From a virus (taxonomy: Duplodnaviria > Heunggongvirae > Uroviricota > Caudoviricetes), in the IMG/VR virus record IMGVR_UViG_646311923_000005: DNA of 41,721 bases. One strand, written 5' to 3'. Numbering within the stretch: position 1 is the stretch's first letter; each line of letters opens with the position of its first letter. Made by a program: the position numbers. Shown here piece by piece: positions 39,001 to 41,721 of the stretch.

Positions 39001-41721
39001 TCTGAGCGAATATTAGCTGTCAGTAATTTGTAAAAACGCCACAGGCATCAAGAATACAAGAGTATGCCTGTGGTTGACAGGTTTCAGATGACTTGAGGGC
39101 GTCTTTACGTAAATGCATTTTTCTGTGGAGATGCTGTCGGAAAATATTGGGTTAAAAACAGAATCCAAGTCAAATAGTAAGTTTGTTTTTTTTGAGATTA
39201 GGTGTGTGTATTTAGAATTTTTATGGTGTGTTTATTTTGTGGGGTATTTTAGAAAAAATATATTAATCCTTATTAATAATAGCTGCCATCCATTTCAGCT
39301 ATTATTTTAAAATAAACAAGTTAAAGCTTAGACTCTTGTTTCTTGGATTATATCAAAGATATCAACATGATTTGATGGATTATGATGTGGTAAGCCATTG
39401 CTTTCGATATCGATTACCACATCCTCTGGATTTGGATGCCGCTGTCCAACAGGGATACCTTCTTCCATAGCTCGTATATCAGCCCCTGTTGCACGGGCAA
39501 TATCTTCTTTATTAGGGAAGATGGCACCTTCTCTTGCGTGCCACCATATACGAGGATAGTCAGTGAATCTGCCTTCACCTGTCTCGGCTTTGTTTAAATC
39601 TGCCAGCCCCAGAGTCGTACCTGCCCACCATAAAATAGTGTCTGGCTTTAATCCTGGAGTGTAGCATTGTACAGCATGCCCCAAAGCCTGTCCGGCCATC
39701 GAGCCAACATGGGGGCTCAGCATTGCGTCTGTTCCTGTATATTGAGATAGAGTATATCCCCCTGCAGCACCAGCTGCATTCGCAAGTGCATTGGTAAGAA
39801 CGGCATATTTGGTATTAGGATTATCTAAATCCCATTTAAAATGAGCTCCAAATTCTAAACCTAAAGTGCTCTGCAACGGAGTGCTGCCATACTTTAAGTC
39901 AAACTCACCAGGTCTGATGACCCATTCTTCCGTATAATTTGCTTTAGGCCCTTCAGGTGTAAGTGGTGTTTCTCCAACTAGTTTCCATCCATTATCTGTT
40001 TTGACTATAGGTAGTTCTATGCCGTGGTTACGAACAACTTGAGCTGTTACTCCAAACCATGGATTGGGATTTTGAGAGAGAAACTTCTGGAGTGGTCCTG
40101 GGAGCGCACCGAAGTTTATTCCCACCTCATCATGTAGGGGGAATAACTGTAAAAAATAATTCCCGGTTGTGGGGTGAATATCTGGTTTTACAATGTTCAT
40201 CTGAACACCATATTTACCAGAGATACCAGGAACGGTGCTGGGTATTTCTAATGCCATCTGAGTAACATTGAATAAACCAAACATATCCAATGCTTTTTTT
40301 CCTGCTGAGCCTTCTTCAAGGTGAGGAGCAAGATATGCGTCTAACCCTGAGAGCAGACCTTTATCTCTTATTAAACCCAACAGAGCTGTTGTTTCACCGC
40401 ATTCCGGAGTGTGTTGCTGTATATCCTCTGGAATATTAACAACAAATCCAGTCTCACATCCAGGTGGCAATTCTGATTCCGGTATCTGATTTGGCGCAGG
40501 ATGTGGTGGGTGTGCAAGATGTAAGGGGGGGGTTAATCCAGTGTGCACATTTGGTTGAACATTCATAATAAATCCTTATTACATAGTTTATATCCATTAA
40601 TAATATCAATCCATTGATACTATTAGTGTCACATATCCGATGTGGACAGCTTTAATATATAGCTGTTTGAATGCTTGATTGATGTGACTTAGATCTCAAA
40701 ATTAAGTTGTTAAATTTACCAGTTTATCTCTTGAATACTTAAAATAAATTATAAATGTTTCTGTTATTGTTTTTTTATAGTTTAAGTTATTGTTGGTTGT
40801 ATAAGCTGATTACATTTTTACTCTAAGTGTTATAAATATTTTATACTGATATTAGTCTTATTATATATATTTTTAATGAAAATGAGCATAAAACCAAGAC
40901 ATATAATGCTTGGCAGCTTTATGCTCTTCTGATTGGCTGTATGTTTGATGACAAAAAATTAGCGCAAGAGGACAAAAAATCACCTTGCGCTAATGCTCTG
41001 TCTCAGGTCACTAATACTATCTAAATAGTTGATTCATAGTGACTGGGTATGTTGTGTTTTGTCGTATTTTGTAGTCTATTATTTAGACTGAGTCAATTAT
41101 AAGACGTTGATATTAATGGTTTTTACTGTTTCACATTCAACTTTTTTATACTAACTTGAGCGAAACGGGAAGGTAAAAAGACAAAAAGTTGTTTTTAATA
41201 CCTTTAAGTGATACCAGATGGCATTGCGCCATCTGGCAGAGTGATTAACTAAACATCGCAGTAATCGAGGCGCTTGCCAGAGAGTGGAAATGAACGTTAA
41301 ACCCGACCATCGCGCCGCTGGCACCTTCATCGACATCAATACGTTCTACATCCAGCGCGTGAACGGTAAAAATGTAGCGATGAGTTTCGCCTTTCGGCGG
41401 TGCTGCGCCATCGTATCCGGTTTTACCAAAATCGGTACGCGTCTGCAAAACGCCGTCTGGCATTGCTACCAGACCAGAGCCAAACCCTTGCGGTAATACG
41501 CGTGTATCAGCGGGTAAGTTAACAACTACCCAGTGCCACCAGCCGGAGCCGGTTGGCGCATCCGGGTCGTAGCAGGTGACAACAAAACTTTTCGTTCCCG
41601 CAGGAACTTCATCCCACGCCAGATGCGGTGAAATATTATCGCCATCGTAACCCATGCCGTTAAAGACATGACGATGCGGCAACTTATCGCCATCGCGCAG
41701 ATCGTTACTGATGAGTTTCAT

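Follow-up and report, generated by a model that had tools for sequence, protein, structure and literature searches.

Evidence for a lambda-type attR with a variant core base at the right end of a decayed, effector-carrying prophage of Escherichia coli

Lambda Int carries out strand exchange at both edges of a 7-bp overlap, which is flanked by the sites C, C', B and B' (PMC2952878; PMC4880445). The overlap, 5'-TTTATAC-3', is numbered from -2 to +4, and the two partners must agree in it completely (PMC2952878), and the right-hand product of integration, attR, has the composition C-O-B' (PMC4880445). The cast of lambda att sites is listed in these same papers (PMC2952878; PMC4880445). In K-12, the attachment site lies between ybhC and ybhB. 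Among the elements of the phage arm, P2 is an arm-type site used in excision, the IHF sites follow the consensus WATCAANNNNTTR, and the sib/tI element is the int retroregulation site and terminator of lambda.

The stretch of DNA analysed here, referred to below as the window (IMG/VR record IMGVR_UViG_646311923_000005; 41,721 nucleotides), has at its two ends the stop codon of an int gene of lambda type (position 1) and the start codon of ybhB (position 41721). Such an extent, from the int stop to the ybhB start, indicates one prophage lying between ybhC and ybhB, with its attL just outside. No tRNA genes were found in the window, and thus a tRNA-type integration site was no candidate. The initial annotation had proposed integration at the lambda attB locus with a lambda-like attR, a proposal that was upheld by the overall layout: a P arm on the left of the junction, an exact B' arm plus ybhB on the right, and int at the other end of the window. 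The feature is almost certainly an ordinary lambda-type attR (P-O-B') of a lambda-family prophage at the classical E. coli lambda attachment site, ybhC/ybhB (Table 1). An attR at the lambda site is textbook, already known biology, and nothing in it challenges current understanding.

When the whole 41.7-kb window was searched for the lambda core GCTTTTTTATACTAA with up to two mismatches allowed, only one match was obtained, compared with 0.05 expected by chance, and no second att-like core was present elsewhere. This match, the common core ACTTTTTTATACTAA, differs from that of lambda by a single mismatch. Its 7-bp overlap is exactly TTTATAC, flanked by the core-type half-sites C (CAACTTTTT) and B' (ACTAACTTG). 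The 15 bp are not all identical to GCTTTTTTATACTAA, given that position -7 (window 41140) is occupied by A; it had indeed been pointed out beforehand that the first core base is A and not G.

To the right of the overlap, the sequence is that of an unoccupied attB, with the B' arm followed by ybhB. From 41155 onwards, the window matches the B' arm (cttgagcgaaacggg...) on the right side of attB (cttgagcgaaacgggaagg...) in K-12 MG1655, with identity over the 33 nt shown. Unoccupied attB sites matched window positions 41141-41185 at 100%, and thousands of E. coli genomes have an empty attB that agrees with the window at 100% from 41141 to the right, in full agreement with the B' arm and ybhB that had been read after the core. 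In related genomes, bioA is the next gene after ybhB.

The left side of the junction was compared with the P arms of lambda and other phages. BLAST gave 83.9% identity to lambda over 216 nt (E value of 4e-56) and 88-91% identity to HK97, HK106, vB_EcoP-720R6 and PhiR70_1. In an ungapped alignment covering lambda positions -152 to -8, 112 of 145 positions were identical (∼77%), with the divergence falling mostly in the spacers. The P-arm-like sequence described earlier was thereby borne out, and alignment to lambda attP and E. coli attB gave a P arm homologous to that of lambda and a B' side identical to that of K-12. A multiple alignment contained no indels with respect to lambda from about -145 to +7, which allowed lambda site positions to be carried over directly. 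The names of the sites in Table 1, like their approximate extents, are those that we take from the established lambda att map; the boundaries of X1, X1.5, X2 and the Fis site, presumably as in lambda, are approximate. On this map, the putative P1, P2, H1, H2 and Xis/Fis sites stand at lambda spacing. Among 75 unique natural P arms, conservation was 0.91 to 1.00 in the binding motifs versus 0.82 to 0.87 in the spacers. The sole change from lambda in H1 affects an N position of the IHF consensus, and in H2 all three changes do so, leaving the consensus intact.

The span first delimited, 40997-41161, corresponds to P1 through the start of B', and the conserved phage block starts further left, near 40946. 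Immediately left of P1 lies the sib/tI hairpin, which is identical to lambda at 45 of 46 positions and has a conservation of 0.99 over the 75 unique arms. The homologous stretch of HK97 is annotated as the sib retroregulation site. A simple terminator scan did not call this hairpin, though folding shows it clearly.

The possibility was considered that all this might be a chance resemblance in AT-rich DNA, with no attachment site being present. The single core mismatch is the only point that speaks for such a reading, which was refuted by the E value of 4e-56 to the lambda attP region, the core expectation of 0.05, the exact B' flank plus ybhB, and the int gene at the far end of the window; its probability is next to nil.

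Table 1. Positions of the attR components, the integrase gene remnant, the effector cargo and the host flank in the window
Feature	Position	Strand	Basis or remarks
5'-truncated lambda-type integrase gene (int')	1..1028	-	Lambda Int residues 16-356; without start codon and residues 1-15
Effector cargo genes	34311-40566		nleB2, truncated nleC, nleH, cif, DUF1076 gene, nleA
nleA	39328-40566	-	RefSeq annotation of 99.7%-identical genomes
sib/tI hairpin, outer P-arm edge	40946..41005	-	RNA fold -29.8 kcal/mol, z -5.75, then U run
P1 arm-type Int site caggtcactaat	41004..41015	+	12/12 lambda identity; invariant in 75 unique arms; presumably P1 of the established lambda map (cf. PMC2952878)
H1 IHF site	41022..41034	-	Top taaatagttgatt, bottom AATCAACTATTTA, fits WATCAANNNNTTR; 12/13 lambda identity
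P2 arm-type Int site catagtgactg	41035..41045	-	11/11 lambda identity; invariant over 75 arms
Xis site X1	41048-41060	+	13/13 lambda identity
Xis site X1.5	about 41061-41067	+	4/7 lambda identity
Xis site X2	41068-41082	+	12/15 lambda identity
Fis site, overlaps X2	about 41074-41089		Transferred from lambda
H2 IHF site	41100..41112	-	Top taagacgttgata, bottom TATCAACGTCTTA, fits WATCAANNNNTTR; 10/13 lambda identity
C core-type Int site CAACTTTTT (lambda CAGCTTTTT)	41138..41146	+	8/9 lambda identity; contains A(-7) at 41140
15-bp common core ACTTTTTTATACTAA	41140..41154	+	Sole match, 0.05 expected
7-bp overlap TTTATAC	41145-41151		Exact; sequence and numbering per PMC2952878
B' arm and bacterial intergenic DNA up to ybhB	41155..41244	+	K-12 attB right side
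ybhB, PEBP-family "kinase inhibitor," host gene flanking attB	41245..41721	-	ORF of 158 aa; RefSeq annotation in 100%-identical genomes

Position -7 is the first base of the 15-bp core and lies inside C, 5 bp left of the overlap. Since strand exchange takes place only within the overlap, the part of attR to its left is phage derived and the part to its right is bacterial. Consequently, the base at -7 in attR is inherited from the phage attP, whereas that in attL comes from the bacterium, and an attP carrying A(-7) predicts G in attL and A in attR.

This is what was seen. The expected place of attL is 74 to 88 bp left of window position 1, outside the window. In strain 2011C-4251, the stretch 74 to 88 bp left of the int stop reads gaagcct-GCTTTTTTATACTAA-gttggcatta..., that is, B, a G core and P'. 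The sister genomes with this canonical G-core attL are 100% identical to window positions 1-1028 and to attR. The matching core copy at the left junction, the absence of which was to refute the initial annotation, is thus present by proxy, in these relatives. At both of its ends, the window is matched at 100% identity by many STEC/EPEC-type genomes, among them those of O103:H2, O45:H2 and O121. The remnant of an unrelated prophage, the 24-kb element of VTB97022v, also has A in attR and G in attL. Hence, both prophages in which attL was read (relatives of the effector prophage family and VTB97022v) showed the same arrangement; given that the window begins at the int stop, the G of attL is known from the close relatives and VTB97022v only.

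The junction would go back to a temperate phage of the lambda family whose integration into the lambda site between ybhC and ybhB was mediated by Int and IHF. The incoming attP would have carried a lambda-type P arm (P1, H1, P2, X1-X2/F, H2) and a C site reading CAACTTTTT rather than CAGCTTTTT, and strand exchange within TTTATAC would have kept A(-7) in attR and the bacterial G in attL. In a competent prophage, attR and attL together with Int, Xis, IHF and Fis would then constitute the excision substrate. A(-7) is an inherited phage attachment-site allele, not damage or a defect, and it is probably competent for recombination.

To what extent the A allele occurs elsewhere was determined with a 57-nt megablast query against complete E. 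coli genomes. Of 5426 genomes, up to 258 carry it, and in 41 of these all 57 nt are identical; with the 28-nt seed used, almost any match must contain the A, while a few of the 98.2% matches could carry G. A lambda-type P arm adjoins ybhB in 1536 complete genomes, so that the A allele would account for roughly one in six occupied sites. Similarly, A(-7) was present in 5 of 89 IMG/VR junctions, in five different P-arm contexts, and in 8 of the 75 unique P arms. It was also found in PhiR70_1 (PV340577), in E. coli VTB97022v (a chicken isolate) and in MB06233 (a seawater isolate). VTB97022v and PhiR70_1 retain full-length int and xis. In the three A-allele attRs from other records that were checked, cattca or tattca stands directly left of the A.

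Whether the A reflects a variant core or a mutation had been left undecided by the initial annotation, and the recurrence of the base in so many genomes, with several P-arm haplotypes, favours a phage-borne variant. The alternative would be that the integrating phage had a G core and that the A arose later, as a point mutation in the attR of a now-immobile prophage. This prophage is defective, its int being truncated and its xis deleted, so that selection on attR is relaxed, and the searches for an attP form with A gave no match. IMG/VR, scanned for the exact pattern of a free-phage attP (P-O-P') with A, yielded 0 matches, which is weak evidence, since only 13 of the 89 IMG/VR junctions are in attP form, and a BLAST search of 50,697 phage records with a synthetic P(A)OP' 116-mer gave no exact match (best full-length match, 94.8%). 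However, the A occurs in different prophages of unrelated strains, in up to 258 genomes and in at least 5 to 8 distinct P-arm haplotypes, including prophages with intact int and xis (VTB97022v and PhiR70_1), and the cattca/tattca to its left is common to the three A-allele attRs checked. Moreover, the rest of C, the overlap, P1, P2 and X1 are unmutated, and relatives with an intact early region, such as CEC12044, suggest that the A is older than the int/xis deletion. The breadth of the allele and its presence alongside intact int and xis make a G-to-A mutation after integration unlikely, to the point that we regard it as highly improbable.

PhiR70_1 was also considered as a possible free phage with the A allele and was rejected as such, its record starting in P' and stopping in B'. 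The record is thus cut at the prophage ends, and its functional status rests on the host field only. No papers mentioning PhiR70_1 were found.

As read from the sequences, A(-7) changes the C half-site from CAGCTT to CAACTT, which is the C' half-site of lambda on the opposite strand (AAGTTG). The core-type consensus is reportedly CAACTTNNT, and is said to go back to work by Ross and Landy in 1983; a search of the literature for this string yielded nothing citable. Judged by this consensus, CAACTT would be, if anything, a better match than CAGCTT. A bolder reading is that A(-7) is more than neutral, with CAACTT forming a perfect inverted repeat of C' and a full match to CAACTTNNT. A sizeable minority of lambda-family phages (∼1/6 of the occupied attB-lambda sites) might then possess an attP to which Int binds more strongly at C, with a measurable effect on the kinetics of integration or excision. 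We regard this as a speculative and rather unlikely proposal.

For its part, the left end of the window gave information on the state of the prophage. The element encodes an integrase of lambda specificity, though the gene is 5' truncated: the int' product is identical to lambda Int (chains 5j0n and 1z1g, residues 16-356) at 338 of 341 positions (99%). Homology of int' to lambda and to the sister genomes ends at position 1028, where int' is joined to the 3' half of an adenine methyltransferase gene situated ahead of ninE. Relative to CEC12044, the window lacks everything from xis onwards, including N, the repressor gene, O, P and ninB, as far as the 5' half of this methyltransferase gene. With int codons 1-15 gone and xis deleted, an intact pair of int and xis is lacking, and this prophage copy cannot excise on its own. 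Because neither Xis nor a normal Int can be made, attR is stranded, and its use would require Int and Xis to be provided in trans by a phage of lambda specificity.

In strain 2011C-4251 and in O103:H2 strain 129, a 1310-bp IS3-family element sits at the precise point of the deletion where int' meets methylase' (AAAGGTT-IS-GTCGGATGG). At 1020-1040 (junction at 1028/1029), the window has AAAGGTCGGATGG, with the IS and 3 bp gone, and this IS-less junction was found by BLAST in 0 of 5426 complete genomes. An identical IS copy lies within a Rha-family gene, at window positions 10731-12040, with an AAG target duplication; this insertion is common to strain 129 and EL361. The int'/methylase' junction looks like the outcome of an IS-mediated deletion followed by IS excision; an assembly artefact is possible. 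The same C-terminal int product beside ybhC adjoins an IS3-family transposase in several further E. coli assemblies, and pflB/pflA-type genes (PFL-like, radical SAM activase) lie on the far side, which suggests that an IS at this point in int has given rise to large rearrangements that differ from lineage to lineage.

Between the tail-fibre genes and attR, in the place of the lambda b region, the prophage carries a cargo of type III effector genes, identified from the RefSeq annotation of 99.7%-identical genomes (Table 1). A second integrase gene fragment, without N and C termini, is located between cif and the DUF1076 gene (37998-38267, minus strand; ORF 37992-38270), and suggests that the effector cargo region was put together in an earlier integration or recombination event. 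The late regulatory region also contains non-phage-like cargo, at 3075-4034 (minus strand) and 6671-8521 (plus strand). A truncated antiterminator gene is broken by a gene for an LpxR-family lipid A deacylase, and downstream of Q, in the same arrangement as in Stx phages, there is a gene for a SASA-family carbohydrate esterase; no stx genes are present. The attR described here fixes the right boundary of this 41.7-kb prophage of STEC/EPEC-type E. coli with its effector genes nleB2, nleH, cif and nleA. The prophage is decayed and occupies the textbook lambda site. The A/G difference at -7 illustrates the textbook rule that only the 7-bp overlap must match, while bases outside it segregate with their arm of origin, so that the base at -7 can serve to tell phage from host ancestry at the lambda site.

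In comparison with lambda (NC_001416, core at 27724-27738), the window shows the same chromosomal site, the same overlap TTTATAC, and the same order and spacing of P1, H1, P2, X1, X2/F, H2 and C. P1, P2 and X1 are identical to those of lambda, and the integrase is 99% identical. The differences are the A instead of G at -7 (C being CAACTTTTT), a P arm only 77% identical, with its changes mainly in spacers and IHF N positions, and the absence of xis and of the int 5' end from the window copy. The lambdoid phages HK97, HK106 and 434, which use the lambda attachment site, all have G at -7, unlike the window. HK97 and HK106 combine a P' near-identical to that of lambda with P arms 88-91% identical to that of the window, while the attP of phage 434 has the canonical 15-bp core and a variant C' side (gtaggcc versus gttggca in lambda). 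Natural variation of the att arms is thus normal in functional phages, as HK97, HK106 and 434 illustrate. In addition, part of the core is present a second time in the P arm of HK97 (TATTTTTTATACTAA); this copy falls in the X2/Fis region, 63 bp to the left of the real core.

In the lambda-type phage family, the att core appears as a mosaic boundary, with the int/P' part (the 1-1028 side) conserved and the P arm (40995-41139) diverged. Such an asymmetry could also mean that another lambdoid phage or prophage at the same site later donated the P arm, or else the int-P' end, through homologous recombination, in which case attR and int would differ in ancestry. The contrast between a 99% identical int, with a single mismatch in the 33 nt of P' compared (sister genome), and a P arm at 77% (112/145) fits this explanation, as do the mosaic nature of lambdoid genomes and the fact that the 75 unique P arms sit beside near-identical P'/int in other phages. 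However, the same asymmetry exists in the free phages HK97 and HK106, which indicates a property of the phage family and gives no sign of an exchange after integration. We therefore consider a swap unlikely; even if one had taken place, the feature remains a lambda-type attR.

Regarding the other occupants of the site, PhiR70_1, VTB97022v, MB06233 and five IMG/VR contigs have the same ...TTCA-ACTTTTTTATACTAA-CTTGAGCG junction at ybhB. These A-allele records differ from the window in P-arm haplotype and phage gene content, and none of them is an excised attP form. A literature search for a description of the effector prophage at ybhC/ybhB found only general reviews. In genome sequences, this effector prophage is present in O103:H2, O45:H2, O121 and related STEC/EPEC genomes (e.g., NZ_CP027388 and NZ_AP038983), with 99.4-100% identity over the window and an identical attR region (40600-41721), whereas CEC12044 has kept the early region (N, repressor, O, P), unlike the window.
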